DNA from: an uncultured Planctomycetales bacterium
GTDB taxonomy: Bacteria; Omnitrophota; Gorgyraeia; Zapsychrales; Zapsychraceae
Reading direction: 5' to 3'
Length of the DNA: 40,530 bases
Assembly: GCA_964541845.1 (NCBI GenBank)
Contig: CAZIRV010000002.1
Coordinates: 1 to 40,530, forward strand
A model generated the notes under the pieces. It searched no databases. It was not told the DNA's origin and saw nothing but the letters and a program-made list of their open reading frames with translations. The position numbers were made by a program, and so were the translations under genes. The stretch's first letter is position 1; each line of letters begins with the position of its first letter. This document shows positions 2,646-40,530 of this stretch, one piece after another.

Positions 2646-3814
2646 TGAAGAAATATTTTAAAAAAGAGTTAGAGGTGTTAGAAAAAAAGGGGCTTAGACG
2701 GGCTTTGCGTCAGCAAGAAGGGACTCAAGGAAGAAAGATTACGGTTAATGGTAAGGAAGTATTGAATTTTTGTTCTAATAATTATTTGGGCCTAGCAGGA
2801 GATGAGCGTTTATGTGAGGCCGCGAAAAAGAGTTTGGAATTAGAAGGGTTTGGTTCCGGAGCGTCAAGACTTATTTGTGGGAATATGGAGTCCCATCAAA
2901 AATTGGAAAAGGCTATCGCGGAGTTTAAGGGAACGGAAAGTTGTTTATTGTTTAGTTCAGGATACATGGCGAATGGTGGAATTATTTCGAGTTTATTTGA
3001 TCGGGGAGATATTATTTTTTCAGATAAGCTCAATCATGCTTCAATTGTTGATGGTATATTGTTAAGTCGAGCCGATTTTAAGCGGTATCCGCATCGGGAT
3101 ATGAAAGTATTGGAAAAGATGTTGAAGGGTTCAGATAAGTGTAAGAAACGGATAATTATCACAGATAGTGTTTTTAGTATGGATGGAGATATAGCCCCTT
3201 TGGATAAAATTGTAGCGTTGGCACAGAAGTATTATTGTTTAGTCATGGTCGATGAGGCCCACGCTTTGGGCATCATGGGAAAGTCTGGAAAAGGATTGGT
3301 TGAGCATTTTGGTGTTGAGGATAAAATTGATATTCAAATGGGAACCTTATCTAAGGCGGCGGGTTCCTTTGGGGCGTATTGTTGTGGATCAAAGGAATTA
3401 GTTGAGCTTTTAAAAAATAAGGCGCGTAGTTTTATTTATACGACGGGCTTACCACCATCAGTGGCGGCAGCTTCACAAAAAGCAATTGGCATTATTAAAG
3501 AAGATGAAGGTTTAAGAAAGCAATTGTGGAAAAATACGGTTTATCTCCATGAAGCATTAAGAAATTCAGGTTTTGATACGATGAATTCAGAAACACCCAT
3601 TATTCCTATTTTAGTAAAGGATTCTAACGTAGCTGTCGAATTTTCTAAACGGTTGTTTGATGAAGGCATTTTTATCAGCGCGATTCGCCCACCGACGGTT
3701 CCACACAATATGGCACGGTTGCGTTTGACTGTAATGGCAACGCACAACCAAGATGATTTAGATTTTTTATTGAAAAAAATGCAGAAGATTGGAAAGGAAT
3801 TATGCCTTATCTAA
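2645..3814 (+). CDS. bioF: 8-amino-7-oxononanoate synthase
   Basis: This belongs to the alpha-oxoamine synthase family, with DEAHA and the PLP lysine in GTLSKAAG. The start is moved to ATG 2645 (MKKYFKKELEVLEKKGLRR), because the ORF-track N-terminus is translated repeat sequence. Confidence 0.9.
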   Translation: MKKYFKKELEVLEKKGLRRALRQQEGTQGRKITVNGKEVLNFCSNNYLGLAGDERLCEAAKKSLELEGFGSGASRLICGNMESHQKLEKAIAEFKGTESCLLFSSGYMANGGIISSLFDRGDIIFSDKLNHASIVDGILLSRADFKRYPHRDMKVLEKMLKGSDKCKKRIIITDSVFSMDGDIAPLDKIVALAQKYYCLVMVDEAHALGIMGKSGKGLVEHFGVEDKIDIQMGTLSKAAGSFGAYCCGSKELVELLKNKARSFIYTTGLPPSVAAASQKAIGIIKEDEGLRKQLWKNTVYLHEALRNSGFDTMNSETPIIPILVKDSNVAVEFSKRLFDEGIFISAIRPPTVPHNMARLRLTVMATHNQDDLDFLLKKMQKIGKELCLI

Positions 3815-4608
3815 AGACGCAAAGTAATATTGATTGGCATTATCAGATTCAGGGGGAGGGAGAATCTCTTTTATTTCTACATGGATGGAGTGTGGATAGC
3901 CGGATATGGCGTCAGCAGTTGAAGTTTTTTAGAGAGCATTTCAGAGTGATTGCTGTTGATCTTCCGGGGCATGGAAAAAGTAGTTGGCAGAAGGTTTCTT
4001 TAGGTGAAATGGCTGAGGATATTGGGCATATTCTTAATCAGGAAAATGTTAAGGAGTTAAGTGTTGTAGGGAGTTCCCTGGGTGGATTGGTAGCGTTAAA
4101 ATTTTATGCTATTTTTTATGCAAATATTAAACAGATGACGTTTGTAGGGACTATGCCAAACTTTGTTAAATCTGAACAACAACCTTACGGTCTGGATATC
4201 GAAAAAATTCGGAAATTATCCGGACAGCTTGAGACGGATTATACAACAATCCTCAGTATTTTTTTTCGGTCTCTTTTTACGAAAGAAGAGCGGGCGACTC
4301 GACGGTTTAAATGGATTCAGAAATTTCGTAAGGCAGAAGAGCCTCCCATGAAAGCAGCTATGGCAGAATATTTGGATATTTTAGAGCAGGAAGATTTAAC
4401 GGAAGTTTTAAAGAGTGTTCAATGTTCGATGCAGTTTATTAATGGGGATGGAGACGAAATTTGTAATCAAGAGGCGGTGGATTATTTAAAGACAATAGTC
4501 TCTCAGGCACGTTTTGATACGATGATTAAACGGGGACATCTCCCTTTTTTAAGTACACCGGAAGAGTTTAACGAAGTTTTGCATGAGTTTTTAGGTGACA
4601 GTAAATAA
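3802..4608 (+). CDS. bioH: Pimeloyl-ACP methyl ester esterase (alpha/beta hydrolase)
   Basis: It has the HGW oxyanion region, the nucleophile elbow GSSLGG and a C-terminal GHLPF histidine. It sits between bioF and bioC and overlaps the bioF end by 13 nt. Confidence 0.8.
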   Translation: MPYLKTQSNIDWHYQIQGEGESLLFLHGWSVDSRIWRQQLKFFREHFRVIAVDLPGHGKSSWQKVSLGEMAEDIGHILNQENVKELSVVGSSLGGLVALKFYAIFYANIKQMTFVGTMPNFVKSEQQPYGLDIEKIRKLSGQLETDYTTILSIFFRSLFTKEERATRRFKWIQKFRKAEEPPMKAAMAEYLDILEQEDLTEVLKSVQCSMQFINGDGDEICNQEAVDYLKTIVSQARFDTMIKRGHLPFLSTPEEFNEVLHEFLGDSK

Positions 4609-4615
4609 AGTGTAA

Positions 4616-4641
4616 CCGTTCACGGCATATCCCGTGAACGG
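4616..4641 (+). repeat. Perfect 10-bp hairpin CCGTTCACGG-catatc-CCGTGAACGG in the bioH-bioC spacer
   Basis: The stem is read directly from the sequence. It shares the GTAACCGTTCACG motif with the outer arms of the 13889-14040 element. No T-tract follows it. Confidence 0.8.
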
Positions 4642-4653
4642 GCACAATAAAGT

Positions 4654-5430
4654 ATGTTTAATCTTATTGATCAGAAAATTCGGAAGGCATTTTCTAACGC
4701 GGCGATGCAGTATGATGTATTGACAGGCTTGCATAAGGAGATTGGACGGGAGTTAATTGCCAGGGTTGCTTTGCGGGACAATTGTTCAGCAGTTCTGGAT
4801 GTTGGGATGGGGCCGGGGTGGTTGACGAATCGGTTGACGCGTGTATTTGAAAATGCAGGGACTGTTGGGGTCGATTTTTCTTTGGGGATGATTGGGGAGG
4901 CTAAGAAAAAAGAAGGGAGTTTTAAAATTGTACAGGCGCACGCGGAGAATTTACCATTTAAAGATAGTACGTTTGACGTTGTTGTTTCGAATTTAGCCTA
5001 TCAATGGGTTGATGATTTATTGCGAGCTTTTAAGCAATGTTATTTGGTTTTAAAAGATGATGGTCTATTTTGCTGTACATTGTTTGGGCGCAATACTTTT
5101 GAAGAATTGTTTATTTCATTAGAATCGGCGACAGATCGTAATGTGTTGCCGATCGATAGGTTAACGGGACAAGAAGAAATTTCGAGAGCTGTTTGTGAAG
5201 CAGGATTTAGTGATATAAAAATAAATAGCGAGCTGATCAAGGCGCGTTTTCCCGGTATGATGGCATTGCTTAAATGGATAAAAGATATTGGAGCAAATGC
5301 TTTGCCGCGAGACTTTTTTGTCGGAAAAGAGTTATTAAGTCGAGCCAATGAATATTATGAACAGAATTTCCGAGATAGATTAGGGGTTATTGTTACTTTT
5401 GAAGTGATTTGGGTTGAGGTAAAGCGATGA
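4654..5430 (+). CDS. bioC: Malonyl-ACP O-methyltransferase
   Basis: It carries the class I SAM-binding motif VLDVGMGPG and sits in the biotin operon. Its stop overlaps the next start (ATGA). Confidence 0.85.
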   Translation: MFNLIDQKIRKAFSNAAMQYDVLTGLHKEIGRELIARVALRDNCSAVLDVGMGPGWLTNRLTRVFENAGTVGVDFSLGMIGEAKKKEGSFKIVQAHAENLPFKDSTFDVVVSNLAYQWVDDLLRAFKQCYLVLKDDGLFCCTLFGRNTFEELFISLESATDRNVLPIDRLTGQEEISRAVCEAGFSDIKINSELIKARFPGMMALLKWIKDIGANALPRDFFVGKELLSRANEYYEQNFRDRLGVIVTFEVIWVEVKR

Positions 5431-7475
5431 GTAAAGGGGTATTTATAACAGGGACAGATACGGGGGTTGGAAAAACAATGGCCACTTTAGTTCTTGGAGC
5501 CTTGATGAAGGACCAGAATATTGATGTGGGGGTAATGAAACCCATTCAATGTGGTGGAGAAGATGCGGCATTATTAAAAATAATGCTTGGGATTGAAGAT
5601 TCCCTTGAGGAAATTAATCCCTATTTTGTAAAAGAGCCTTTGTCTCCGAATGGGGCATTTGCTCGACAGAAAATAGTTATTAGGATTAATAAAATTATTT
5701 CCGGTTACACAAAGTTAAGCGCACGGCATGAGTTCATGTTAGTTGAGGGGGCAGGAGGTTTACTGGTGCCTCTTAAAAAGGATTATTTTATTGCTGATTT
5801 GATTAAAGATTTGGATTTAGATGTGGTTATTGTCAGCCGTTTGGGTTTGGGAACTATTAATCATACGTTGCTGACGATTAATCAGGCTCGGAGTTCGGGA
5901 TTGAATGTGCGGGGAGTTATTTTTAACCAGACTAAAAATCATACGCCAGGGGTTCCGGAAGAAACAAATCCGGATATTATTCGAACGTTTGGAAAGGTTC
6001 CGGTGTTAGGGATGATTCCCTATTTAAAAAGTGCAAATTTTAAGAAGATTGTTAAAAAATGCAGGGGACAAATAAATTTTAATGATTTTGTAAAGACGCC
6101 CCAACGGGGCGTCTTTACCACAGAACAATATATCCATGATGATAAAAAATATTTATGGCACCCTTTTACGCAGATGAAGGATTGGCTTGAGCAAGAGGTT
6201 TTAATTATTGATAAAGCTAAAGGAAGTTATTTAATCGATACTCAAGGAAATCGTTATCTTGACGGGGTGTCCAGTCTTTGGGTGAATGTGCATGGTCATG
6301 GTAAAAAGGAAATTGATGAAGCTGTTAAACAACAGATTAATAAGTTGGGGCATTCAACGTTGCTTGGTTTGTCCAGTACCCCGGCTATTGCGTTGGCAAA
6401 GGCGTTGGTTGATATTGTTCCTAAAGGACTGGAAAAGGTTTTTTATTCAGATAGTGGTTCAACGTCTGTTGAAATTGCTATTAAAATAGCTTATCAATAT
6501 TGGCAAAATATCGGACAAAAGAAAAAGATGAATATTGTTCATTTGGCGAACTCGTATCATGGAGACACATTGGGCAGCGTGAGTGTCGGAGGGATTGATT
6601 TATTTCACGAGGTTTATCGAAACCTGATTTTTAAGACGATAAAATTAGATTTTCCGGATTGCTATCGCGCGCCTAAAGGAAAGAAGTATCCGGATTATGC
6701 GTTTGAGTGTCTTGGGCAATTTGAGGTGATGCTAAAGAAGAAGCGTGACGCGATAGCTGCTTTTGTTGTTGAGCCGATTGTACAGGGAGCAGCGGGAATG
6801 ATTATGTGGCCGAAAGGGATTCTTAAGCGGATGGCGGCGTTGTGTAAAAAATATGAGGTAATTTTTATTGTGGATGAGGTGGCAACGGGCTTTGGACGGA
6901 CAGGAACCATGTTTGCTTGTGAACAAGAGAACGTTCGTCCTGATATTTTGTGTTTGGCTAAGGGAATGACAGGGGGGTATTTGCCGTTAGCCGCGACATT
7001 GACGACTAAAAAAATATTTGATGGATTTTGTTTTGATTACAAAGAACAGAAAACTTTTTTTCACGGACATACGTACACAGGGAATCCGTTGGCTTGTGCG
7101 GCAGCTTTGGCTAATCTTGAGGTTTTTAAGAAAGAAAAAACATTAGTTAAGTTACAGCCGAAAATTAAATTTTTTCATCAGAGGCTTCAGAGGTTTTATG
7201 ATTTTTCGTGTGTTGGAGATATTCGTCAACGAGGTTTTATGGTGGGGGTTGAATTAGTAAAGAATAAAGAGACGAAAGACCCTTATCCTTGGGAGGAGCA
7301 AATAGGCGCAAAGGTTTGCCGGGAGGGTCGTAAGCACGGTGTTATTTTAAGGCCATTAGGTGATGTCATTGTTTTGATGCCGCCATTGTCGGCGAGTAAA
7401 AGTGAGTTAAAAAAATTATTGGATGTGACGTATAATGCGATTGAAAAGGTTGCAGGGAGTAGAGCAAGCATTTAA
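5427..7475 (+). CDS. bioDA: Fused dethiobiotin synthetase (N-terminal) / adenosylmethionine-8-amino-7-oxononanoate aminotransferase (C-terminal)
   Basis: The N-terminal part carries GTDTGVGKT and EGAGG, as in BioD. From about residue 235 the sequence is a class III aminotransferase (DEVATGFGRTG, HGHTYTGNP), as in BioA. The ORF is a single uninterrupted 682 codons. Confidence 0.88.
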   Translation: MSKGVFITGTDTGVGKTMATLVLGALMKDQNIDVGVMKPIQCGGEDAALLKIMLGIEDSLEEINPYFVKEPLSPNGAFARQKIVIRINKIISGYTKLSARHEFMLVEGAGGLLVPLKKDYFIADLIKDLDLDVVIVSRLGLGTINHTLLTINQARSSGLNVRGVIFNQTKNHTPGVPEETNPDIIRTFGKVPVLGMIPYLKSANFKKIVKKCRGQINFNDFVKTPQRGVFTTEQYIHDDKKYLWHPFTQMKDWLEQEVLIIDKAKGSYLIDTQGNRYLDGVSSLWVNVHGHGKKEIDEAVKQQINKLGHSTLLGLSSTPAIALAKALVDIVPKGLEKVFYSDSGSTSVEIAIKIAYQYWQNIGQKKKMNIVHLANSYHGDTLGSVSVGGIDLFHEVYRNLIFKTIKLDFPDCYRAPKGKKYPDYAFECLGQFEVMLKKKRDAIAAFVVEPIVQGAAGMIMWPKGILKRMAALCKKYEVIFIVDEVATGFGRTGTMFACEQENVRPDILCLAKGMTGGYLPLAATLTTKKIFDGFCFDYKEQKTFFHGHTYTGNPLACAAALANLEVFKKEKTLVKLQPKIKFFHQRLQRFYDFSCVGDIRQRGFMVGVELVKNKETKDPYPWEEQIGAKVCREGRKHGVILRPLGDVIVLMPPLSASKSELKKLLDVTYNAIEKVAGSRASI

Positions 7476-11709: not shown

Positions 11710-11767
11710 TCAGGATCTGCCCATAAATAATCTGGACAATTTTATGCGCAGATCCTTAGGAGGGGAT

Positions 11768-12013
11768 ATGGATATTTCAGAATCAAAAGATCTTTTGCGG
11801 GATAAGAAGGTGGTTGAAGCTATTAATAAACATCTTTGGATTGAAAGCCAAAAGGCTGGGTATAGTATTGGAATTGAACGGGCTACTGAGGAGTGGTTGA
11901 GATTATACGCATTAGAATGGATGAAATATAATATGGTCGATCGGTATGCGCAAATAAAGAGAAAAAAAAGGGTTAAAAAAGCTGCTTTAAAAAAAGTCAG
12001 GGTTTGTAAATAA
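11768..12013 (+). CDS. Small hypothetical protein with basic K/R-rich C-terminal tail
   Basis: The ORF has an SD (AGGAGG, 11758-11763) before ATG 11768. It has a helical core (NKHLWIESQKAGYSIGIERATEEWL) and the tail KRKKRVKKAALKKVRVCK. I cannot assign a family. Confidence 0.6.
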   Translation: MDISESKDLLRDKKVVEAINKHLWIESQKAGYSIGIERATEEWLRLYALEWMKYNMVDRYAQIKRKKRVKKAALKKVRVCK

Positions 12014-12102
12014 TACTAATTCCATTAAATAAGTACTCATTTAAAAAGCTTACTTACTCGCAAAAACGTCGAGGTAAGTAAAATTAAATCAGGAATTAAT
12101 AC
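12013..12102 (+). repeat. Family-1 hairpin element, X subtype
   Basis: The arms are ATACTAATTCCATTAAATAAG and CAGGAATTAATAC. The inner stem is CTTACTTACTCG/CGAGGTAAGTAA and the loop is CAAAAACGT. It abuts the stop codon of the upstream gene. Confidence 0.85.
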
Positions 12103-12203
12103 CAAATTCATTAAATAATTGCTCTATTTTAAGGTTGCTGTGTCTCGTTGAATCGTCGAGACAAGCAAAATGAATTTTGGTCATTATTTAATGAAATTGG
12201 TAT
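12099..12203 (+). repeat. Family-1 hairpin element, Y subtype (copy Y1)
   Basis: The arms are ATACCAAATTCATTAAATAATT and CATTATTTAATGAAATTGGTAT. The inner stem is TTGCTGTGTCTCG/CGAGACAAGCAA and the loop is TTGAATCGT. It differs from 38781-38885 at 6 of 105 nt. Confidence 0.9.
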
Positions 12204-12235
12204 AACCGGGACATTTTAACTTATTTGATCAATGA

Positions 12236-12249: not shown

Positions 12250-12279
12250 TTAAGGATGAATTGAGAAATATTTTATAAT

Positions 12280-12316
12280 AAAAAAACCCTCCGAGTTATC
12301 GCAGAGGGTTTTTTTA
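12280..12316. terminator. Bidirectional intrinsic terminator
   Basis: AAAAAAA-CCCTC..loop..GAGGG-TTTTTTT has an A-run and a T-run flanking a GC stem. It lies 3' of the minus-strand lysine-rich gene and of the plus-strand gene at 11768-12013. Confidence 0.7.
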
Positions 12317-12332: not shown

Positions 12333-12503
12333 TTATTTTTTCTTTTTGGTTGCTTTTTTCTTCACAACCTTTTTAGTCGCTTTTTTTACAGCTTTTTTTT
12401 TCACAACCTTTTTAGTTGCTTTCTTCACAACTTTTTTTGGAACAGCTTTTTTGGTCACTTTTTTTTTGACAACTTTTTTTGTTGTTTTCTTTTTGATTGG
12501 CAT
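12333..12503 (-). CDS. Lysine-rich histone H1/Hc1-like small basic protein (56 aa), absent from the ORF track
   Basis: Hand translation of the minus strand gives MPIKKKTTKKVVKKKVTKKAVPKKVVKKATKKVVKKKAVKKATKKVVKKKATKKKK*. The SD AAGGAGG lies 7 nt upstream of the ATG (start codon 12501-12503), the stop is TAA and a terminator follows. The plus-strand F/T-rich ORF at 12346..12537 is its mirror image. Confidence 0.75.
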   Translation of the reverse strand: MPIKKKTTKKVVKKKVTKKAVPKKVVKKATKKVVKKKAVKKATKKVVKKKATKKKK

Positions 12504-13888: not shown

Positions 13889-14040
13889 GTAACCGTTCAC
13901 GCCTTCATTGTGTCATTGCGAGAAGCCAATCAATTAATCAGGGTGACGAAGCAATCTTGGGTCAGCATAAAAGATTGCCGCGTCGGCTTGAATATTTTGA
14001 ATGCCTTCTCGCAATGACACAGAGAGGCGTGAACGGTTAC
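13889..14040. repeat. 152-nt nested palindromic element
   Basis: The outer arms are GTAACCGTTCACGCC and GGCGTGAACGGTTAC. A perfect 16-bp stem is formed by GTGTCATTGCGAGAAG and CTTCTCGCAATGACAC. An inner hairpin is formed by GCAATCTT and AAGATTGC. Confidence 0.85.
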
Positions 14041-16877: not shown

Positions 16878-18453
16878 ATTAGTTCATAATATGGGAGTAG
16901 ACAGCGAGGAAAAGGAAAAAGTTTTAATATCTATTACCCGGGAACTACGGGCTTCTTTAACCGCTATTCTTGGATTCGGAGGTCTTTTAAAAAACACCCC
17001 TTTGGATGATCAGCAAAAAGGTTATCTGGAATCAATGCTAACGGATGGGCGCTCTCTTTTAGAGCTAGTGGATAATATGGCACAGTTTTCTCTTTTAGAA
17101 CAAAATCAGAGCGTCCAAGAGCTTATTGATTTTGATGTAGAATTTTTAGTCAATGATGTTTTTAGAATGGTGGACAAGAAGTCTTCGTATAGACCGGTAA
17201 GCAAATACGTCGATGTTGCCCAAGGATTTTCTCACTATTTTAAAGGAGATCCGGAAAAATTAAGAAGAGTTCTTTTTAACCTTTTAGATAACGCTATTAA
17301 GCTAAGTGTTAAGGGTGAGGTTTGTGTTGTTGTCACGGAAGTTAAGATAGAAGAAAATGCAGAAGAAAATACAGAAGAAACCATTTTGAGGTTTACAGTC
17401 AAAGATACAAGTGGAGGCATCTCTAAGCAGAAGCAAAAAGAAATAGAGTCTTTATTCAATCATGTTGGAGTGCCTTTTCAAACTAGTGAGGATATGGGGT
17501 TAGTTGTGAGTAAGTCTTTAGTGGAGGCGATGGGCGGTAAAATCTGGATGGAATCAGAAGAAGGGAAAGGAAATCGGTTTAGTTTTACGGCAAGGTTTCA
17601 AAAGGGGGGTTCTATTTTTCAAAATAAAAAGTTAGAGGGAATAAAGGCGGTCATTATTGATGATAATCAAGGATCAAGGACTGTCGCGCGAAGATATTGT
17701 GAAGAGCAGGGAATAGAAGTTTTAAGTGTGGTAGATTCTGTTGGAGAGGTTTTTGAAGTAGTAGATAAGTTGATTGTCGGAAAAAATTTTCCCGAAGTGA
17801 TTTTAAGTGATGTGGTTTTAGCCGGGGTCCCGGGATGGATGTATGGATATGAGTTAGTTAAAAAAATTCAGGAAGATGAAAGGTGGCAGGACATAAAAAT
17901 AATCGCGATGACTTCAGATATTCGGTATGGCGCAATGTCCGGAGTGGAAGAAGGGGGTTTTGATGGTTGTTTGGCGAAACCTTTTTCTCGACAGGAATTG
18001 TTAAAGGTTTTTGAAGTGGTGTTAGGTTTGAGAGAAAAGGAGGCGCAGGCCGGTTCTCATGAAGGGAGAGAAGAAGGCTGCGTCGGTATTAAGGTATTGG
18101 TTGTGGAAGATGATATTTCTAATCAGAGATTAATTAAAGCTTGTTTTAATGTTCTTGGATGCAGGGGAGATTATGCCTCTAATGGGAAAGAAGCTATTGA
18201 GAAGTTAGAATTAAATGTTTATGATATGTGTTTGATGGATGTGATGATGCCGGTGATGAATGGAATAGAGGCGACCAAGATGATAAGAGAAAAAATTTCT
18301 AAAGATTTTCCTATTGTTGCTTTAACAGCCGCGACAACAGAATTCAGTCGTGAGACCTGTTTAAACGCCGGGATGAACGATTATATGATAAAACCGTTAG
18401 ATATTTTAAAGCTTGAGGAGAAAATTTTGCAATATGGAAGATTACGATGGTAA
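16864..18453 (+). CDS. Sensor-less hybrid histidine-kinase paralog with degenerate H-box and ATP lid, plus two receiver domains
   Basis: It aligns with the next gene from the HisKA domain onward. The H-box reads [15 protein letters not shown] against [15 protein letters not shown], so Arg26 (codon 16939-16941) replaces His. G1 reads DTSGGI and G2 reads EDMGLV against GTGLGL. Both receivers keep their Asp. Confidence 0.8.
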
Positions 18454-21400
18454 GAAGGAATAAAACAAAAAAATTTCAATCTATTTCTATCCAGATTCTA
18501 ACCGCTATTTTAGGAATTATGGTTATCGGTATTTTTGTTATGGGATATTTTTCTTATCTCAGGGCAGATCGACTCTTAACAAAGAATGCCGTTACTTCAA
18601 TGAAAAATCATCTTGTTTATTCACAAAATTTTTTTCAAAAGCAAATTGTGGCATTCCGTCAGGAGGTGACTTTTCTTTCAAAGGTTCCACCGATTCAGGG
18701 AATTATTCGTACGCGTAAATTTAACGGAATAGATTTTAATGAAATTACGACGGAAGATTTATGGAAAAAACGGTTGGAGAGTATTTTTTTAACGATGCTT
18801 AAATCGAGGCCGGAATATCAGCAGGTCCGTTTTATCAGTAAGGCTGATAATGGACGTGAGATTGTTCGGGTAGATAAAACCTCGGAAGGGAATATTGTAC
18901 AGAGAGAAAAGGCTCTTCAGAAAAAAGGAAATAGGAATTATTTTTTCGAGACGCAAAAACTCAAAAAAGGAGGGATTTATTTAAGCGAGATTACATTAAG
19001 TCGGGAGAACGGAAAGATAAGCGTTCCCTACCAGCCAATGTTAAGGATTGGGACTCCTGTATATGATCAGGCAACAGGAGAGCTTTTTGGCATGGTTGTT
19101 ATTAATGTGAATATTCAAGCTATTTTTCGTCAACTTTTTCAAAAAACAGACAGCTATCATTTTATTGTAACTAATCAGGATGGCTATTATTTGTATCATC
19201 CGGATTCTTCCCGTATTTTTGGATTTGAATTAAAGCATGATTACAGAATGACAAAGGATTATCCTCAAACAGTAAAATTTTTTAAAAAAGAAGCGGAAGA
19301 AGCTACGGCGAAACGAGAAGACAAAGATATTCGTCAGTTTGCTGTGAAGAAAGAAGAGGAGATTCTACTCGTAAAGGTTTTTCATTTTGATCAGGATCGC
19401 CCCAGACGGTTCATGATGATTTCTTTGGTAGCGGGGGAAGAAACTATTTTTGAGCAATCCAAAGGTTTTCGGAATGAAATATTTCTTGTTGGGGGAGTTC
19501 TTACAATTTTTCTTATTGGAGGAGCCTATTGGAACACAAAAAAAATTATTTATCCCATTGCGCAACTTACCAAATATGCTCAAACATTGGCTTCGGGAGA
19601 GTCTTTCGAGGGATATTTGTCCTCTGACCAAAATAATGAAATCGGAGAATTAACAGAATCACTTAATGTCATGACGAACAATTTACAGGAAGCCATTAGG
19701 GCCCTGGAATATGAGAAAATAAATTTAGAGAATACGGTTAAAGAAAGAACATTGTATTTAAGGAAAGAAATTGATGAGCGAAAAAAAATTCAGGAAGAAT
19801 TAGCGAAAAACGCGAAAAAAATGCAAAAAGCGCATTTAGCTACTCTTAATATTATGCGGGATCTTAAAGAGGAGCGTGAGTTGGCTATGGAACTAAGTAA
19901 AAAAGCACAGGCATCTGCGCAGGCTAAAAGTGACTTTTTAGCGAATATGAGTCATGAAATCCGAACCCCTATGAACGCGATTATGGGATTCAGTGATTTG
20001 TTGAGAAAAACTTCATTAGATGAAACCCAAAATAAATTTTTAAATACAATTACTTCCAGTGGAAAGCTTTTGCTTAGTGTCATTAATGATGTCCTGAGTT
20101 TTTCAAAACTGGAATCAGGTAAAATTATTTTGGAAATGATTGAATTTGATCTGGAATATTTGGTAGGAGATGTTTTTAAAATGATCACATCTCATCCACA
20201 GGGAGATCGTTCCAGTAGCACGTATATTGATATTGATAAAAATATTCCTCGAAGTGTTATGGGGGACCCTACGCGTCTTAGGCAAATATTGGTTAATCTT
20301 TTAAATAACGCTGAGAAGTTTACATCTCAAGGAGAAATCGGCATTGTTGTGCGTAAGGATGGCACGGAGATTTCGGAAGAGGATATCAGTCTGAAATTTA
20401 TTGTTAAGGACACAGGGATTGGAATTCCGGAAGATAAACAGGATTCTATTTTTGAATCTTTTAATCAGGCGGATACTTCGACCACACGAAAGTATGGAGG
20501 AACAGGGCTGGGGCTTTCTATTTGTCGTTCGTTAGTCAATGTTATGGGAGGGAAGATATGGGTGGAGTCAAAGGAAGGAAAGGGTTCTGAATTTATTTTT
20601 ACGATAAGGCTAAAGAAAGGGAAGGAGGTATCCAAAAATCAAATTCATCCCGTATCTAAAAGAGAGTTAGAAGGAAGATCAGTAATGATTCTAGATGATA
20701 ATGAGACATCCAGAATTATTCTTAAACGTTATTGTGAAGAAATGGGGACGAATGTTTTGTCCGCAATGTCTTCCCCGAAAGCCGCATTGCAAAAGCTGGA
20801 CGAATTTATAGAGAAGGGAACTCTCCCGGAGATGATATTTTCTGATATTATGATGCCGGAAATGGATGGGTATGGATTTGTTAAAAAAGTAAAGTCTCAT
20901 AAAAAATTTGACACAATTAAGTTCATCGCGACGACTTCTGATGTACGTATCGGAGTCGCGCATAAAGCTGAAGAGAAAGGGTTTGATGCTTTTTTACCAA
21001 AGCCAATTTCCAGAAAAGAGCTTGTTTCTGTCATGGCTATGGTGTTAGGAGACCAAAGAAAAGAAGGACAGCAGATTATTACCCGGCATATGGCCGGCGA
21101 AATGGGTTGCAAGGGAATTAAAGTATTGGTTGTAGAAGACAGCCTTCCAAATCAGGAATTAATTAAAGCCTATTTTGATATTTTGGGATGTGAAGGAAAT
21201 TATGCTAATAATGGACAGGAGGCGATTGAAAAATTAAAAATGGGGAAGTATGACCTATGCTTAATGGATGTAATGATGCCGGTTATGGGAGGGATTGAGG
21301 CTACAAAAATGATACGGAAAGAAATTTCTAAGGACATTCCTATTGTTGCATTAACAGCCGCTGTCTTGGATAAAGATAAAGAAAAGTGTTTTGAAGCGGG

Positions 21401-21507: not shown

Positions 21508-22173
21508 ATGGATAAAATTGATATGCAGTCAATGTGGCAGTCAATGTCACTTCTTTTACGATCACATCCCTGGCATGGGATTCCTATTGGAGAAGATGCT
21601 CCGAATATGGTTAATACCTATATTGAAACTGTCCCAACGGATACTGTGAAGTATGAAATTGATAAAAAAAGCGGGTTTTTAAAAGTAGATCGTCCTCAAA
21701 AGTATTCCAGCATATGCCCAACGCTTTATGGATTTATTCCACAGACTTATTGTGGAAAGCGAATTGGGGGCTATTGCGCGAAAGAAACAGGGCGCAGTGA
21801 GGTTGTGGGAGATGATGATCCATTGGATATTTGTGTTTTAACAGAAAAAACAATAAGTCATGGTGATATTATGGTACGGGCTATTCCTATTGGAGGATTT
21901 CGAATGATTGACCGGGGACAGGCCGATGATAAGATTATTGCTGTCATGCACGGAGATGGATTATACAGCTGTTGGAATAATATTGAAGACTGTCCAGAAG
22001 CCTTTATTGATCGTTTAAGGCATTATTTCCTTACATATAAAGATCTTCCTGATTCAATAGATCCGACTTGTGAAATTACGCATACTTTTGGTAAAGAAGA
22101 GGCTCTAAAAATTATTCAGTTCAGCAGGGAAGATTATAAGGATCATTTTGGGCAGTTATCCCAATTTTATTAA
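21508..22173 (+). CDS. ppa: Inorganic diphosphatase, family I
   Basis: It carries an acidic metal-binding signature DDDPLDICVL and has PPase-like length and composition. The stop codon lies inside an arm-like repeat fragment. Confidence 0.8.
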   Translation: MDKIDMQSMWQSMSLLLRSHPWHGIPIGEDAPNMVNTYIETVPTDTVKYEIDKKSGFLKVDRPQKYSSICPTLYGFIPQTYCGKRIGGYCAKETGRSEVVGDDDPLDICVLTEKTISHGDIMVRAIPIGGFRMIDRGQADDKIIAVMHGDGLYSCWNNIEDCPEAFIDRLRHYFLTYKDLPDSIDPTCEITHTFGKEEALKIIQFSREDYKDHFGQLSQFY

Positions 22174-22179
22174 ATAATT
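22161..22179 (+). repeat. Solo arm fragment of the family-1 element
   Basis: CCAATTTTATTAAATAATT resembles the left arm CCAAATTCATTAAATAATT. It contains the ppa stop codon. Confidence 0.5.
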
Positions 22180-22195
22180 TCTTAAAAATAAACTT

Positions 22196-22392
22196 ATAAC
22201 CAAATCTATTAAATAAGTACTCATTTAAAAGGCTTACTTACTCGTAAAATCGTCGAGATAAGGAATCGTTCAAAAATAACCTCGACAATCATAACATAAG
22301 TCTTGTCGGGTTGAGATATATAGTTGTCGAGGTTATTTTTGAGCCGATCCTAAGTAAAACTAATATCAGGAATTAATTAGTGGAATTGGTAT
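22196..22392 (+). repeat. Family-1 hairpin element (X subtype) interrupted by a nested element
   Basis: The left half matches 12013-12070 (ATTAAATAAGTACTCATTTAAAAGGCTTACTTACTCGTAAAATCGTCGAG). The right half is TAAGTAAAACTAATATCAGGAATTAATTAGTGGAATTGGTAT. Confidence 0.85.
22263..22350. mobile_element. 88-nt MITE-like hairpin inserted into the family-1 element, flanked by a TAAG duplication
   Basis: The 27-nt inverted arms are GGAATCGTTCAAAAATAACCTCGACAA and TTGTCGAGGTTATTTTTGAGCCGATCC. A direct TAAG lies at 22259-22262 and again at 22351-22354. The uninterrupted copy has a single TAAG at 12075-12078. Confidence 0.7.
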
Positions 22393-22436
22393 TATTAGAA
22401 GATTTATTAAAAAGGCACAATGCATGGGTTCTTCTC

Positions 22437-26804: not shown

Positions 26805-29216
26805 ATGCGAAATTTAAAATTTTTAATTGTCATTATATTTTTATCTGTCGGTTCCATATCCTTGGGAAATACAAATATAGCGTATGCCGCAACCTATGGT
26901 CATGGAGCAGGTTATTCAAATTTAGTTAAGAAAAAGGAATCCCCGAAGCATGTTGCCTATCAAGTTCAGAAAACTATAAAAACATTTTCAGAAAAAACGG
27001 GGACAACAACACTCAATAAGCATAGCCCCCCTAAGTCTTCTCTATCGTCACTTTCGCGTGAGACTTCGCAAAAACACAAAACTAAAACATCACATAAATC
27101 TTCTCGTGCAAAAACGCAAAAAAATTCCCATGCTTCAAAAAAAACAAAACAGCTTATTAAATCCACTACTCTTGAACGGTTAGACCAAGCCCGCCAGGAT
27201 AGGAATATTATTACCCCGCTAATAGAGATAAAAGTTAATAATATTAATTCGAACAGCATTTTTAAAATTATTGGAATCTTTGTTTTTGTTATTTTGCTAG
27301 TCCTTGGATTAGCATTCCAATCCGGTATTTTTATTAGAATAAGCTTAAGTAGGAAATTATACGCAGGATTCGGGTTTATAATTCTTTTGATTATTGCGCT
27401 CGGTGTATTTAACAAATACTCTTTAAACAGCGTTAATGCTCAAAGTCATTTATCAGAAACTTTTTTAGACTTAAATACTTTAGTTACAGAAATGGAGGCC
27501 CTACAAAACGAATTTTTGCTTGTAGGAATAGAAGACAGAACTAAGGGTGAAACTTTGTTGCTGGAGCACCAAGCATCTTCTACAAAAATTCATGAAATAC
27601 TCACTGATGTTCAACGCGCGGAAATTGATACAATTGAACAGCGTGCTCTCGAAGCAATCACTGCTTCCTTTAAAAAGTATGTCCGTCTCTATGAAGGATT
27701 AGTTCGTAATTATCATGTCATTGAAGAAGATAAAGAAAAACTTGAAGAAGAAGCCTTGTCAATGGAGGGGTCCCTGGAAGCTATGCTTCAGGAGCATAGA
27801 AAAGATTTAGCCCGCTTACGTTCTAGGGGTGAAATAGGTGAAGAAGTAGACAAACAAGCTCGATTGGTCGGAGAACTTGCGGAAGCAGAACGTTTAATGT
27901 TAAGGCTTAGTCTTTCCGAGGTTGAATTTTTAAATGATAAACAGATCGACAGCGTCCATTCGATGGAACAATATTCCGGAGAATTAGAGTATACTTTAGA
28001 AACCATTGAATCTCATTTGAAAAATGTTGCAATTAATGGGAATAAGTTTAAAGAGGATCAAAAAAAATTACAACATGTACAGAAACAAGTAGAAAAATAT
28101 GAACAACTATTAGTTAAAATAATTACAGATCAATTATTAATTGAAAAAGAAAATTTAGATTCAATGGGACTTTTAAAACGCATAAATGCAACTGTTTCTC
28201 TATTATCTAAACGGGCTAATAATAAATCCAATACGGAAAAAACAAGTGCGGGACAAAAATCTATTGCGATTATTTTTGTTATTGCGTTATTAAGTTGTGG
28301 GCTTTCGATTGTTATATCAAAAAATGTAGAGAACTCTTTGATAAAAGTTGTTCAGGAACTCACGACCAATTCTGAGCAAGTTGCCGCGACTTCATGGCAA
28401 GTATCGCAGTCAAGCCAATCGTTATCTCAGGGAGCAACCGAACAAGCTGCCAGTCTGGAAGAAACCTCTAGTTCCATGGAAGAAATAGGATCTATGGTAA
28501 AACGTAACGCTGAGTTTGCCCAAAAAGCTAACCAAAAAGCCCAAGAATCACAGAGTCAGGCAGAACAAGGGGCCGGGGCGATGCAAAATATGGAAATCGC
28601 TATGGAAGACATTTCAGACTCTTCCAACAAAATTGGAAAAATTATTAAAACGATTGAAGAAATTGCCTTCCAGACAAATCTCCTTGCCTTAAATGCCGCT
28701 GTTGAAGCAGCACGTGCCGGCGAGCATGGAAAAGGATTTGCCGTTGTGGCTGATGAAGTGCGTAATTTAGCGCAACGCTCGGCTGTGGCCGCAAAAGATA
28801 CAGCCCAATTAATTGAAACAAGTATACAAAATTCTAAAAATGGAGTCGATATCGCCAATCAGGCAAGTGAAACATTGAATCATATCCTAGAAAATTCTAA
28901 AGAAATGACAGGAATTATTACTGATATTGCAGCTGCGAGTAAAGAACAATCTGATGGAGTATCTCAAGTCAGTACTGCAATAACTCAAATGGATCAAGTG
29001 ACACAAACCAATGCGGCTACTTCTGAAGAAAGTGCCGCGGCTGCTGAGCAACTCAATGCCCAGGCTGCCGGTTTGAAAGATGTTGTTACTATTCTTAAAG
29101 GGGTTGTTAAAGGGGCTAATGCTACAAATGATCGGTTCCTCTCGCATACTAATGCGTTGCCACAACTTCAAAAACGTTCTGCAATTTCTATGAATAATAC
29201 CCGTTCCATTAAATAA
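26805..29216 (+). CDS. Methyl-accepting chemotaxis protein with atypical N-terminus
   Basis: It carries the conserved signalling hairpin [41 protein letters not shown]. The N-terminal part has a signal peptide, a basic S/T/K-rich low-complexity stretch, three TM segments and a long helical ectodomain. Confidence 0.9.
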
Positions 29217-29301
29217 TTGTTCTATTTTTAACTCTGCTATTCTCGTTAAATCGTCGAGAAAAGCAAAATCGGTTTTGGTCATTATTTAATGGAATGGGTA
29301 T
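29197..29301 (+). repeat. Family-1 hairpin element (copy Y3) bridging two convergent genes
   Basis: The arms are ATACCCGTTCCATTAAATAATT and CATTATTTAATGGAATGGGTAT. The inner stem is CTGCTATTCTCG/CGAGAAAAGCAA and the loop is TTAAATCGT. It contains both stop codons (29214-29216 on the plus strand, 29282-29284 on the minus strand). Confidence 0.9.
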
Positions 29302-30778
29302 TATTTAATAGAAATTTTTTTAGGTTAGCTTTTTTATGCAGGTCTTCCAGAAAGGCGCCGTAGGCCTCATCCTTTTTTTCTTCCATCATGCGTTCGGCAA
29401 AGGAACGGCTGTTTTTTCCAAATGCAGACATATCTGCAGGGATTAATTCATCAAGGTGCAAAATCGCGTAACCTTTGGTGGTAGACGCGAGACCACTTAA
29501 AGGATTTTGAGTTGTTAACGCGAAAAGTGTATCCCGGGATTTTTTTTGAATACCAAGAATAAAAAGAATTTGCCTCTGAGGGAGCAGAGCGGTCTGTTCA
29601 GAGGTTAATCCCAGAGATTTAAGAGATTCCACAAAGTCCTGCTTTTTTTGAATTTTTGTTAAATATTCTCGCGCCTTGATTTCAGCCATATCTCCGGATT
29701 TTTTGCGTGTTAGAATAGAAACAATTTTTTCTTTAGCCTCGGCAAAATCCGGAATGTATGAAGGCCGTTTTTCTTTAAGCTTTAAAACTAAATATCCTTT
29801 TTCCCATTCGGCGGGGCCAACTACTTGCCCAACTTCGAGTGTAAAAAGATTTTTGAGAAGGGTGTAAGATTCCTTTATTTTTAATCCTTTGCCGCTTTCT
29901 GTATTTCCAAGAGGAAAGTCAAGCTGTTTACGGTGGAAATAGCCGCTTTCATGAACAGAGAATTTAAATTTTTTCGCAAGGGCTTTAAAGTCCGGATTCT
30001 CGGGATATTCTTTGATAATGGCCTTGGCTTTAAATTTTGTCTCTACTCTTTTCTGTACACCAGCACCTTTAGGATAATCCGCGCGGATGTATTCAACTTT
30101 TACAGTTGGGGGCACAAAGAAATCGTATTTGTGTTGTTCATAATAACCGTGCATCTCTTTATCCGTGAGGAGAATTTCTTTTTCATAATCAGAAGCTAAA
30201 ATTTGTACATAAGTAACTTCGATTTTTGTATTTTGTTTTTGGTATTCTTCCCGAATTTGTGGCATGGAAAAGGTGATGGGACTGGTAATTTTTGTGCGTA
30301 ATTGATCAGTGATTAGAGATTCACGAATGGCCTCTTCAAAGTTTTTGATTTCAGATTGAAGAGATGTACGGATAATTTGTTTGTAGAGGAGATCATTGAA
30401 TTTATTTTTTCGAAAAAATATTTTGTATTGCGCGATGGCGTTAATGACCTCTTTATCAGAAACTTTAATTTTATGATTCTTTGCTTCACGCAGAAGAATA
30501 AGTTGGTCCCATGTTTGTGTGTCTAAATTTAATAATGGTTCAACGTCTTCAAACATGCGGCCATAGCGAAATTTAGTCAGAGTAAGATTGTGGCGGTAAA
30601 CCTTTTGAAACGCTTCGGCGGTTATTTTTTTCCCAAAAATCTCGCCGACATAGGATTTTGGTTTGAAAAGAGAGGGGATTTTGGACACAACTGTAAGAAT
30701 AATAGCGGCCCCAATAACTGCTCCAATAAGCCACACTAATTTTTCTGGTGTATTTTTTTTACGAAATTGTTCCAGCAT
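29282..30778 (-). CDS. PpiD/SurA-like periplasmic chaperone (peptidyl-prolyl isomerase family), membrane anchored
   Basis: It has an N-terminal TM (LVWLIGAVIGAAIILTVV), a SurA-N-like helical region and a parvulin-like segment (EVGQVVGPAEWEKGYLVLKLKE). Confidence 0.75.
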   Translation of the reverse strand: MLEQFRKKNTPEKLVWLIGAVIGAAIILTVVSKIPSLFKPKSYVGEIFGKKITAEAFQKVYRHNLTLTKFRYGRMFEDVEPLLNLDTQTWDQLILLREAKNHKIKVSDKEVINAIAQYKIFFRKNKFNDLLYKQIIRTSLQSEIKNFEEAIRESLITDQLRTKITSPITFSMPQIREEYQKQNTKIEVTYVQILASDYEKEILLTDKEMHGYYEQHKYDFFVPPTVKVEYIRADYPKGAGVQKRVETKFKAKAIIKEYPENPDFKALAKKFKFSVHESGYFHRKQLDFPLGNTESGKGLKIKESYTLLKNLFTLEVGQVVGPAEWEKGYLVLKLKEKRPSYIPDFAEAKEKIVSILTRKKSGDMAEIKAREYLTKIQKKQDFVESLKSLGLTSEQTALLPQRQILFILGIQKKSRDTLFALTTQNPLSGLASTTKGYAILHLDELIPADMSAFGKNSRSFAERMMEEKKDEAYGAFLEDLHKKANLKKFLLNNTHSIK

Positions 30779-30799
30779 AAAATTTTCTTTGTACGTATT

Positions 30800-31201
30800 T
30801 TAAGACTTTTTGGTCCAATTTTGAATTTCGAGTCCTTTTACGCGTTTGTAATGTTTTTCGTTATTCGTTACGAGCGTGTAGTTAAGATACATTGCGATTG
30901 AGGCATTGAGGAGGTCAAAGTCATCAAAGGGGGATCCTTTTTTTTGAAGGTCGGCCTTGAGTTCTCCAAAAATATCCATAATTCCTTTTTTAAGTCCGAT
31001 AACAGGAAATAGTTCGGCAATACGTTTGACGGTCGCGAGATTTTTTGTTTTGTGTTTGGATTTAGCAGCCCCAAAACGGAGTTCACCATAAGTAATAACA
31101 GAAATAGCTTTTGGCTCTTGAGCGGTTCGGACAATATTTTCCTGAACAGCAGGCATTCCTGAGAGGCTGTAGATGATGATATCGGTGTCAATTAAATACA
31201 T
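30800..31201 (-). CDS. vapC: PIN-domain ribonuclease toxin
   Basis: It has the MYLIDTDIIIY N-terminal acidic motif and conserved D/E positions typical of VapC. It overlaps the upstream antitoxin gene by 14 nt. Confidence 0.88.
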   Translation of the reverse strand: MYLIDTDIIIYSLSGMPAVQENIVRTAQEPKAISVITYGELRFGAAKSKHKTKNLATVKRIAELFPVIGLKKGIMDIFGELKADLQKKGSPFDDFDLLNASIAMYLNYTLVTNNEKHYKRVKGLEIQNWTKKS

Positions 31202-31469
31202 TCTTAAGAGTGTCTTTTGTGTTGTTGCTTCGTTTTCGGCTTGACCGGATTTCAGTGATGAGTGTATCCGCAGATTTTTTAGACTTCCACTTTGCTGACA
31301 ATTTCAAAAATTCTTGAGTAGCTTTTTCAGTTTGTTTTACGGGACGAGAAAGATAGTCCTGAATAATAGAAATAACTTCCTGGCTGATAGACCTATTGTC
31401 TATTTCAGCTCTTCGCCGAAGAGTCTCATAAATTTGATTGTCCATACCTTTTACTTGTAACGTGGCCAT
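31188..31469 (-). CDS. vapB: Ribbon-helix-helix antitoxin (VapB/FitA-like)
   Basis: The product is 93 aa and starts at MATLQVKGMDNQIYETLRRRAEIDNRSISQEV, a beta-strand plus helix RHH pattern. An AAGGAGG SD lies 4 nt upstream. The longer ORF-track version runs into the addA promoter region. Confidence 0.8.
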   Translation of the reverse strand: MATLQVKGMDNQIYETLRRRAEIDNRSISQEVISIIQDYLSRPVKQTEKATQEFLKLSAKWKSKKSADTLITEIRSSRKRSNNTKDTLKNVFN

Positions 31470-31595
31470 TTGACCTCCTTTTATATTACTGATCAACCAA
31501 AATAAGTATAAATCATATTCATGAATAAGCAACCATATTTCATGATTCTCTTTTGATCTTTCGTTTTTCTTTTCATAAGGTATAATATTTTTCTT

Positions 31596-38781: not shown

Positions 38782-38885
38782 TACCAAATTCATTAAATAA
38801 TTGCTCTATTTTAAAATTGCTGTGTCTCGTTGAAGCGTCGAGACAAGCAAAATGGATTTTGGTCATTATTTAATAGAATTGGTAT
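38781..38885 (+). repeat. Family-1 hairpin element (copy Y2)
   Basis: It is near-identical to 12099-12203, differing at 6 of 105 positions. Confidence 0.9.
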
Positions 38886-38972
38886 TAATTCAGAGATAAG
38901 TACTGTGTTCCTAGAATTGGAATTGTGACAATTAAGGGAGATTGAAATGAGAAAAATAACATTTGGTATAAC

Positions 38973-39067
38973 TATAGCGCAGAGCAGAAGTTCTGCAACG
39001 CCGAACATAGGGTTGGCTTGTCGAGAAAAAATGCCTAAATGTCGCAAAGTTTTTGCACTGTGCTATA
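38973..39067 (+). repeat. 95-nt palindromic element, family 2, copy B
   Basis: It matches 2551-2645 with about 12 substitutions and no indel. It contains the ATG at 39031. Confidence 0.85.
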
Positions 39068-39609
39068 TTATTGTATTTTTTTTATGTTCTTCAGCTTTTG
39101 GTCAAGAAGATGGTGTTAATAGGGAGTATTATGATAGTGGTGGTGTGCACTATGAGCGAACGTTTAAGAATGGGCAGAAGGATGGGCAGGCAAGGGAATA
39201 CTATGAAGATGGAACCGTGAAACGAGAAGTCATATATGTGAAAGATAAAAGGCAAGGAGTACTTACAGAGTATCATCCGAATGGAGTGTTAAGAACTACA
39301 ATTGAATATATTGATGATTTTGCTAATGGTGTTGTGGATAGATATGATGAGAAGGGAAGGCTTCGTCATTCAAGCATATATGAAAATGATAAACCTAATA
39401 ATAAAGAGGTCAAACAATTTGATTATTTTGATGGGGGTCAGTTGAAGTATGAATATTATTTTAATGAGGATGAGGGAGGATATTCAAAAACATATTATGA
39501 AAATGGTCAGGTGTCATTGGACATAATTATCGATTGGTTGGGGCTCTACGAGTGTAAAAATTATGATAAAGAAGGTAATTTTATTTCTGACGAATGCCCC
39601 GAAGAGTAG
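39031..39609 (+). CDS. Secreted MORN/YwqK-like repeat protein
   Basis: From ATG 39031 there is a signal peptide (MPKCRKVFALCYIIVFFLCSSAFG/QEDG). Repeated YYxxGxxxxExxYxxGxxxG-type units follow (EYYDSGGVHYERTFKNGQKDGQAREYYEDGTVK...). An alternative upstream start at 38947 has a better SD (AAGGGAG) but would bury the signal peptide. Confidence 0.75.
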   Translation: MPKCRKVFALCYIIVFFLCSSAFGQEDGVNREYYDSGGVHYERTFKNGQKDGQAREYYEDGTVKREVIYVKDKRQGVLTEYHPNGVLRTTIEYIDDFANGVVDRYDEKGRLRHSSIYENDKPNNKEVKQFDYFDGGQLKYEYYFNEDEGGYSKTYYENGQVSLDIIIDWLGLYECKNYDKEGNFISDECPEE

Positions 39610-39710: not shown

Positions 39711-39814
39711 GTATCACTTACATTAAGTAATTGTCCCATTTGAAAGTTGCTATTCTCGTAGAATCATCGAGAAAAGCAAAATGGATTTTGGTAATTATTT
39801 AATGTAATTGATAC
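39711..39814 (+). repeat. Family-1 hairpin element (copy Y4, diverged arms)
   Basis: The arms are GTATCACTTACATTAAGTAATT and AATTATTTAATGTAATTGATAC. The inner stem is TTGCTATTCTCG/CGAGAAAAGCAA and the loop is TAGAATCAT. Confidence 0.85.
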
Positions 39815-40419: not shown

Positions 40420-40530
40420 ATGACATCAAATTCATTTAATAAATCTTAAAACAATTTCGGCTTTTCTCGACGTTTTAACGAGAATAGCAGAAGCAAATTA
40501 AGATTTATTAAATGACATCAAATTCATTTA
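40408..40530 (-). repeat. Family-1 hairpin element in reverse orientation, flanked by 31-nt direct repeats that are themselves hairpins (cut by the window end)
   Basis: The core GCTTTTCTCGACGTTTTAACGAGAATAGCAG is the reverse complement of CTGCTATTCTCGTTAAAACGTCGAGAAAAGC. AAGATTTATTAAATGACATCAAATTCATTTA occurs at 40408-40438 and at 40500-40530. A hairpin GATTTATTAAATGA-catcaaat-TCATTTAATAAATC lies at 40410-40445. Confidence 0.8.

Follow-up and report, generated by a model that had tools for sequence, protein, structure and literature searches.

What are the hairpin repeats that crowd this stretch of Omnitrophota DNA, and how did they become so numerous? The stretch, positions 1 to 40530 of contig CAZIRV010000002.1 (40.5 kb), is called the window here, and the element in question is a repeat of about 100 nt. 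Omnitrophota are uncultured, mostly very small cells whose mobile DNA is essentially undescribed. The original prediction, made from the letters of the window, held that the repeat was a hairpin selected for its structure rather than a terminal inverted repeat (TIR) recognized by a transposase. We found that this part of the prediction does not hold. The repeats duplicate a TNA target, their variants share termini of about 12 nt, and a form lacking the inner hairpin has spread. These three observations point to mobilization by a DDE transposase and not to a structured RNA or to a repetitive extragenic palindrome (REP) moved by a REP-associated tyrosine transposase (RAYT). We conclude that the repeats are very probably MITEs (miniature transposable elements with inverted repeats), non-coding and mobilized in trans by a DDE transposase whose cuts at TNA are staggered by 3 bp. 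They are a known kind of element, and they form an undescribed and very abundant family in Omnitrophota genomes.

The repeats are short non-coding elements with inverted ends

The repeat scan, nhmmer, and a covariance model agreed with each other and with the places first proposed for the family. The scan recovered the repeat from the window, and nhmmer matched it with E values of 1e-26 to 1e-29. The covariance model, which had been suggested as a check, and a profile hidden Markov model both found seven places in the window and no more. The model scored the four full copies at 104 to 117 bits. In these copies the unit runs from TACC to GGTA (TACC...GGTA) and is 102 to 103 nt long. Across the family, elements measure 80 to 105 nt, and no reading frame is conserved across copies. 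The outer arms are TIRs of about 20 bp (consensus TACCAATTCCATTAAATAAT), and 92.6% of the outer-arm cells are paired in an alignment of 52 distinct full copies. Copies are many, dispersed, and partly near identical. Copies B and E of the window, 26 kb apart, are 94% identical in the repeat scan, which bears out the earlier remark that spread or conversion has been recent.

Copies outside the window had also been proposed as a test, and we found them. An exact-pattern scan of one genome per GTDB species gave 12 contigs of a single genome, the Candidatus Omnitrophota metagenome-assembled genome (MAG) SMBSF21 (JAIORP01), and two chance matches. A looser pattern run on metagenome contigs gave 58 further loci. 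The window plus these loci (cited below by L numbers) hold 98 copies in 507 kb by nhmmer.

A 3-bp TNA target-site duplication flanks the repeats

Taking the element as TACC...GGTA, we compared the flanks of the 64 copies that have both ends. The 3-nt flanks were identical in 44 of the 64. TNA stood on both sides in 55 copies, and its middle base matched in 44 of those 55, versus 37% expected from base frequencies (p = 8.7e-11). Matched flanks were TTA/TTA in 26 copies, TAA/TAA in 9, TCA/TCA in 6, and TGA/TGA in 3; inverted-type flanks were rare (TAA/TTA in 4 and TTA/TAA in 1). Because the flank repeats are direct and not inverted, they are not an extension of the arms. The family thus has the fixed-length target-site duplication (TSD) of a MITE, here 3 bp of TNA, and an element with its duplication reads TNA-TACCAATTCC...GGAATTGGTA-TNA. 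Beyond the TSD, the left side is A rich and the right side is T rich.

A nested insertion at L014 (5456-5621) is a paralogous empty site. There, the left arm of one copy contains an 80-nt copy, and deleting the latter together with one TAA gives back the family consensus TTAAATAATTG. Newer copies often lie in or beside older ones at TAA or TTA, as in window copies A and B and in L028, L036, L061, and L064.

In some insertions into an older copy's arm, the distal older arm is missing on one side. We saw this at copies A and B (12097-12205) and in L061 (3332-3525); in L028 (1520-1674), the contig ends before the distal older arm could show. This suggests adjacent deletions or one-ended events tied to insertion.

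The termini are shared and the inner hairpin is dispensable

Full copies contain a second, inner hairpin. Its apex had been described as CTCG and CGAG around a 9-nt loop, and this description stands: CTCG-N9-CGAG is invariant in the window and nearly so across the wider family. The inner hairpin is nevertheless dispensable for spread, because an 80-nt form without it has spread. In this form the hairpin is precisely deleted (TATTCTCGCTAAATCGTCGAGA is gone). The 80-nt form is the commonest in the MAG, where three identical copies lie on three contigs, and we also found two other identical pairs. A 209-nt element (L026, 7429-7637) and composites with extra hairpins (L010, L014, and L067) have only the ends of about 12 nt and the TSD in common with the family. 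We concluded that the termini drive movement.

The subfamilies are set apart chiefly by the inner stem and the middle: Y1 carries GCTGTGTCTCG, Y2 GCTATTCTCG, and Y3 GCATTTCTCG. The A type has a distinct middle and the right arm AATTAATTAGTGG, and two A/Y chimeras (L045_1041 and L070_13658) are joined at the inner hairpin.

According to the model that we favor, a transposase encoded elsewhere in the genome would bind both ends of the element and insert it at AT-rich TNA sites, preferably TTA, through a 3-bp staggered cut, and repair of that cut would duplicate TNA. The hairpin potential would be a by-product of the inverted ends and of the internal palindromic module CTCG-N9-CGAG, and the module would be unnecessary for movement. 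In a compact genome, copies would be tolerated, and so persist, only in intergenic DNA and at the 3' ends of genes.

From the TSD we infer a DDE transposase that belongs to the PIF/Harbinger-IS5 (PHIS) type. PIF/Harbinger and IS5 elements have 3-bp TSDs in AT-rich targets (PMC4122938, PMC2213677), TNA-type TSDs are found within the PHIS superfamily (PMC4482050), and bacterial MITEs derived from the IS5 family are known (PMC4596501). The repeats likewise have a 3-bp TSD in an AT-rich target (TTA, TAA, or TNA). This supports behavior like that of Tourist and IS5-derived MITEs; membership of that lineage would itself be a guess from the TSD alone.

Copies in the window

Of the seven copies in the window, four are full (102 to 103 nt), one is truncated, one has a nested element inserted in it, and one is atypical. 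The list follows.

12014-12099, plus strand: copy A, A-subtype, truncated inside the right arm, as the A-subtype consensus shows, at the TAA that copy B entered; 33.7 bits over model positions 17-86.
12100-12202, plus strand: copy B, full, subfamily Y1, flanked by TAA (12097-12099) and TAA (12203-12205); 112 bits.
22159-22193, plus strand: remnant left arm (TCCCAATTTTATTAAATAATTTC...), directly preceding copy C.
22197-22391, plus strand: copy C, A-subtype, flanked by TTA (22194-22196) and TTA (22392-22394), holding the nested 88-nt element.
22263-22350, no strand assigned: nested 88-nt element inside copy C, with 27-nt inverted ends (GAATCGTTCAAAAATAACCTCGACAA...) and TAAG on each side.
29198-29300, plus strand: copy D, full, subfamily Y2, between convergent genes, flanked by TAA and TTA; 117 bits.
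38782-38884, plus strand: copy E, full, subfamily Y1, downstream of lexA, flanked by TTA and TTA; 106.9 bits.
39712-39813, plus strand: copy F, full and diverged (TATCAC...GTAATTGATA), with the degenerate flanks TTG and CTG; 104.4 bits.
40406-40530, minus strand: copy G, an atypical relative that the end of the window truncates; 56.4 bits.

Several of the places first described were redrawn. Copies A and B had been read as tandem copies sharing 4 nt; they do adjoin, and the insertion point of B is exactly where A breaks off within its right arm. The left flank of copy A is the TAA at 12011-12013, which doubles as the stop codon of the open reading frame (ORF) 11744-12013. What had been taken as a single copy at 22196-22392 is an A-subtype copy, C, with the unrelated 88-nt inverted-repeat element nested in it. 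The arm-only fragment placed at 22161-22179 is real and is the remnant left arm. A second such fragment had been placed at 38886-38930, where we saw no family match, although no analysis was aimed at that segment.

The reverse-strand copy at the window end, copy G, does have the usual core hairpin (CTCG-N9-CGAG and its flanks) on the minus strand. What had been read as its arms are two identical 33-nt direct repeats that bracket this core. These repeats, at 40406-40438 and 40498-40530, are each palindromic (TAAATGA-N8-TCATTTA within TTAAGATTTATTAAATGA...), an architecture unlike that of every other copy. It may have arisen by template switching.

The window has 38% G+C, and nearly all of its genes are on the plus strand. 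Its GC skew is strongly positive throughout (1-40530; 0.02 to 0.40 per 2 kb), with minus-strand genes mainly at 29282-31700. It holds many genes for receiver-domain proteins, CheA, and methyl-accepting chemotaxis proteins (MCPs), and the segments 18076-18332 and 21105-21361 are paralogous parts of one 1,011-amino-acid (aa) ORF.

The family is dense and its carriage is patchy

The assignable related contigs are mostly from Omnitrophota. The 40.5 kb of the window hold 7 copies, and the 84 kb of MAG loci hold 24. Once the copies that anchored those loci are set aside, 12 are left, or about 1 per 7 kb, and the overall density is about 1 per 6 to 7 kb. Extrapolated, a density of about 1 per 6 kb would mean hundreds of copies and a few percent of the genome. 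The LexA protein of the window is 86 to 87% identical to its best database relatives, and the named matches are Omnitrophota/Omnitrophica MAGs. This search gave no protein identical at 100%, and an exact look-up of a window protein had no record, so the window's genome seems to be missing from the collections. The closest relative with a long contig, GCA_029261055.1 (LexA 86% identical), has no copy in 20.6 kb; therefore, carriage is patchy.

The family had not been recognized as a named one, and our searches agree. It matched nothing in Rfam or in the plasmid collection. Viral contigs scanned with the 19-nt end gave one chance match only, within a gene. A literature search found no paper that describes this family and none that joins Omnitrophota with MITEs.

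Matched changes in the arms

In the fold of a full copy, an outer stem of 20 bp is followed by a middle that is conserved and asymmetric, then by an inner stem of about 12 bp that ends in CTCG/CGAG around the 9-nt loop. The predicted DNA folding energies are -18 to -21 kcal/mol, with z scores, relative to dinucleotide shuffles, of -4.9 to -7.5 (none of 200 shuffles did as well); copy B has -21.3 kcal/mol and z = -6.9. Folded as RNA, the copies give -31 to -39 kcal/mol.

It had been claimed that the two arms change together between copies. In the whole alignment (52 copies, 500 shuffles) we found this signal to be weak. The named structure has 88.6% of its cells paired versus 86.6% in the shuffles. 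Cells with double changes number 29 versus 11.6, and 9 pairs have any double change versus 6.6 ± 1.4, a value reached in 38 of the 500 shuffles. A few events at the level of subfamilies, e.g., TACCC.../...GGGTA, account for most of this signal. RNAalifold gave a consensus energy of -4.09 kcal/mol and put the covariation term at -0.39. The arms hold 14 G·T mismatches versus 16 A·C, so neither strand carries a wobble signature.

The claim fared better among near-identical copies. We compared each copy with its nearest relative and kept the 29 pairs with at most 8 differences. The outer arms had 4 compensated double changes, whereas random placement predicts 0.52 (P about 0.002). Pair 9/103 accounts for three of these changes, each in a different subfamily; it went from CG to TA in two of the subfamilies and from CG to AT in the third. 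Window copy B (winB) and L064_4493 differ at pair 9/103 and nowhere else. Single-sided pair-breaking changes, with 49 cases, were much commoner than compensated ones, and the variable arm positions 5, 7, and 9 are interleaved with invariant positions. The arms are thus neither decaying independently nor tightly maintained. Arm homogenization, named at the outset as an alternative source of the pattern, is viable on this count. We infer that the matched changes come from quasipalindrome template-switch correction, an established replication process, or from selection for matched ends in active source copies.

Alternatives to sequence-specific end recognition

Several observations weigh against a PHIS-type MITE recognized by its end sequences. 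If the ends were simply recognized by their sequence, the excess of compensated arm changes would not be expected. The TACC... ends are unlike the GAGAC-type ends listed in PMC4596501, and we found no DDE gene. In the 507 kb, we found no end pairs 0.25 to 4 kb apart around an ORF and hence no autonomous element. The proteins repeated across loci were GAF, ANTAR, and GGDEF proteins, with no transposase-like one among them. The peptide read from a minus-strand ATG just inside the right arm matched only 31- to 70-aa ORFs called across copies; the ones that we traced lie in metagenome assembly GCA_006243085.1. We sought orthologous empty sites via LexA homologues and obtained none, the neighbors not being syntenic. 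Finally, a 1-bp duplication in a T-N-A target (element ATACC...GGTAT) reads the same as the 3-bp duplication, of which a 3-bp staggered cut is the standard reading.

A search for a parent element by solo ends also found none. The window had been said to lack a transposase gene, and we saw none among the 10 MITE-flanking ORFs that were scanned with Pfam, a scan that left other large window ORFs outside.

The alternative that survives best is that the hairpin matters as DNA. The repeat would still be a transposon, and its ends would stay complementary either because a cruciform or single-stranded stem-loop takes part in transposition or excision or because template switching during replication (quasipalindrome correction) carries a change from one arm into the other. 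The compensated changes, their recurrence at pair 9/103, the high pairing of the outer arms, and the alternation of variable with invariant arm positions all favor it. On the other side, the number of covarying pairs in the whole alignment is not significant, unmatched intermediates are common, and hybrid arms exist (e.g., L010_7522, L047, and L070). The sample is also a sparse one of families of hundreds, in which a "single" copy may represent a subfamily that spread after one event. We regard this alternative as possible but doubtful.

We consider it improbable that the transposase belongs to a type not yet linked to a 3-bp TNA duplication, as the difference between these ends and those of known IS5 or Harbinger elements could suggest, or that the end-to-end hairpin is needed as a DNA structure whose arms are actively kept complementary. 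In the second case, CTCG-N9-CGAG would be a separate functional or recombination site. That module is the crossover point of the subfamily chimeras and has a different context in copy G.

Next, the repeat could be a structured RNA element (a regulatory or stabilizing hairpin, a terminator, or a small RNA) whose fold is under selection and whose spread is due to duplication or recombination. In its favor, strong folds are predicted, the majority of copies follow directly on genes, and the inner stem is retained with different sequences by subfamily (GCTGTGTCTCG/CGAGACAAGC, GCATTTCTCG/CGAGAAATGC, and TTACTTACTCG/CGAGATAAGTAA). However, orientation relative to co-directional flanking genes is random (24 co-directional versus 21 opposite; p = 0.77), and wobble pairs are not in excess. 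The RNAalifold consensus fold and its covariation term are weak. Rfam, at gathering and E-value thresholds, matched only tRNAs and, by chance, a microRNA hairpin far below threshold. A terminator-like T-run was called at no copy. An RNA element would also leave unexplained the TNA duplication and the spread of the hairpin-less 80-nt form. The family thus lacks the significant covariation, strand specificity, and curated match of a structured non-coding RNA, and we judge this explanation very unlikely.

Last, and the least likely, is a REP-like element, or a bacterial interspersed mosaic element (BIME), with a RAYT (Y1 HUH) enzyme as its transposase, or a palindrome-associated element of the IS200/IS605 type. 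In favor of this, the copies form palindromes, lie between genes, and are abundant, and we saw no DDE transposase close by. However, such systems use single-stranded hairpins and leave no TSD, the unit here is about 100 nt with 20-bp TIRs and not a 20- to 40-nt REP, and a Y1 or RAYT gene was seen in none of the ORFs scanned.

We also rejected other identities. In many Y copies, a frame of 29 codons starts from the minus-strand ATG just inside the right arm; other subfamilies break this frame, and a coding element was rejected because no frame is open across subfamilies. A terminator role was rejected because no copy has a terminator-like site. As for a promoter role, one weak match, out of the right arm of copy D (TGGTCA-17-TATTAT), was no better than background. 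The copies lie scattered among housekeeping genes and point both ways, and for this reason we dismissed an integron attC site.

The right arm, TSD, and flank together often spell TATNAT 17 nt after TGGTCA. Since orientation bias is absent, there is no support for selection on this promoter-like spelling.

Effects on host genes and assemblies

All window copies are intergenic or overlap gene 3' ends. In the wider family, 13 of 64 copies abut or overlap a gene 3' end, with the stop codon in the arm or supplied by the TSD. Often the stop comes from the arm sequence TTAAATAA or from the duplicated TAA or TGA. Copy D holds both stops of a convergent pair, that of an MCP gene in its left arm (29214-29216) and that of a minus-strand SurA-like gene in its right arm (29282-29284).

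One MAG copy lies within a gene. In L012 (3708-3809), a full copy and its TSD (102 + 3 nt, 35 codons) are in frame and without a stop in ORF 3283-4848 (minus strand). The host gene encodes a tyrosine recombinase with Phage_integrase and Phage_int_SAM_4 domains, and the insert adds IPNPLINCSISILIFSLKRREKQNWFWSLFNGIG between conserved blocks.

Several metagenome contigs start or stop within a copy (e.g., L004, L009, L019, and L060), as expected if the repeats break assemblies. If the extrapolated density holds, the family helps to explain where assemblies break, it gives rise to false calls of small ORFs in public annotation, it alters the 3' ends of genes at the rate given above, and in-frame gene insertions like that in L012 are possible. 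The family also lends itself to strain typing and gives a lead to the active transposase. It leaves the understanding of how MITEs work unchanged.

Other repeats near the copies

The 88-nt element nested in copy C (22263-22350) belongs to a second MITE-like family, whose 27-nt inverted ends (GAATCGTTCAAAAATAACCTCGACAA...) also occur in six other loci (L029, L034, L035, L036, L045, and L050). Its TAAG flanks suggest that its target duplication differs from that of the main family, as perhaps does its transposase.

A third hairpin repeat family, with ends TGTGTCATTGCGAG...CTCGCAATGACACA, lies in the window at 13909-14021, between HemN-like and response-regulator genes, and also occurs in L013, L048, L049, L051, L054, L067, and L070. 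One of its copies is nested inside a main-family copy (L067, 3543-3754). A further repeat of about 100 nt occupies 2550-2650 and 38972-39072 of the window (81% identical) and also occurs in L026, L048, and L062. It has TIR-like ends (TATAGCGCAG...CTG.GCTATA), sits at gene 5' ends, and is in frame in the signal-peptide region of a MORN-repeat gene at 38947-39609 (MRKITFG[ITIAQSRSSATPNIGLACREKMPKCRKVFALCYI]IVFFLCSSAFGQ). A fourth, short and GC-richer hairpin motif (CCCCGAGGCTTGCCTCG...) lies beside main-family copies in seven loci, including L050 (~1700-1775), L026 (~7400-7428), and L061 (~3580-3640). Families of small palindromic repeats seem to be numerous in these genomes.

Near copy B, positions 12333-12503 on the minus strand hold a 56-aa lysine-rich ORF (MPIKKKTTKKVVKKKVTKKAVPKK...) made of 39-, 27-, and 12-nt periodic repeats (12343-12486). 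The product may be a histone-like or nucleoid protein. Downstream of this ORF, on its minus strand, there is a hairpin followed by a T-run (~12277-12316).

Comparison with known systems

The closest known systems are the Tourist-type, or PHIS, MITEs, including the Neisseria ATR (ISNme1) and the MITEs of Porphyromonas gingivalis. Like our family, they are small, AT rich, and non-coding and have TIRs. They also share the 3-bp TTA, TAA, or TNA duplication, AT-rich targets, high copy number, and frequent mutual nesting (PMC4122938, PMC4482050, PMC2213677, PMC4596501). The termini differ, being TACCAATTCC here versus the GAGAC-type ends of IS5-family elements (PMC4596501). Other differences are the Omnitrophota host, the new sequence, and the extra conserved inner hairpin module.

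The original prediction had placed the repeats in a REP-, Correia-, or Rickettsia-like system. They are indeed dense, dispersed, and comparable in kind to Correia elements; since they have a TSD, they are not REP-like. Correia elements (CREE/NEMIS) of Neisseria are about 100 to 155 bp long, have hundreds of copies and 26-bp inverted ends, occur in long and short forms by internal deletion, lie at gene ends, and form a strong hairpin when transcribed; they have functional promoter, IHF, and RNase III sites, and their host is not known to have a transposase for them. The likeness extends to size, abundance, inverted ends, long and short forms, gene-end sites, and strong hairpin. However, Correia elements duplicate TA, whereas the family described here duplicates TNA, and the two are unrelated in sequence, in their ends as elsewhere. 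REP and BIME systems with RAYT resemble it in their abundant intergenic palindromes and compensatory stem changes, but REPs are 20 to 40 nt long and RAYT associated, with neither transposon-type TIRs nor a TSD. Rickettsia palindromic elements (RPE) are likewise palindromic, about 100 to 150 bp long, and able to sit in frame inside genes. In contrast to them, the Omnitrophota family has a clear TSD, shares no sequence similarity with them, and inserts in frame only exceptionally (1 clear case in 98 copies).

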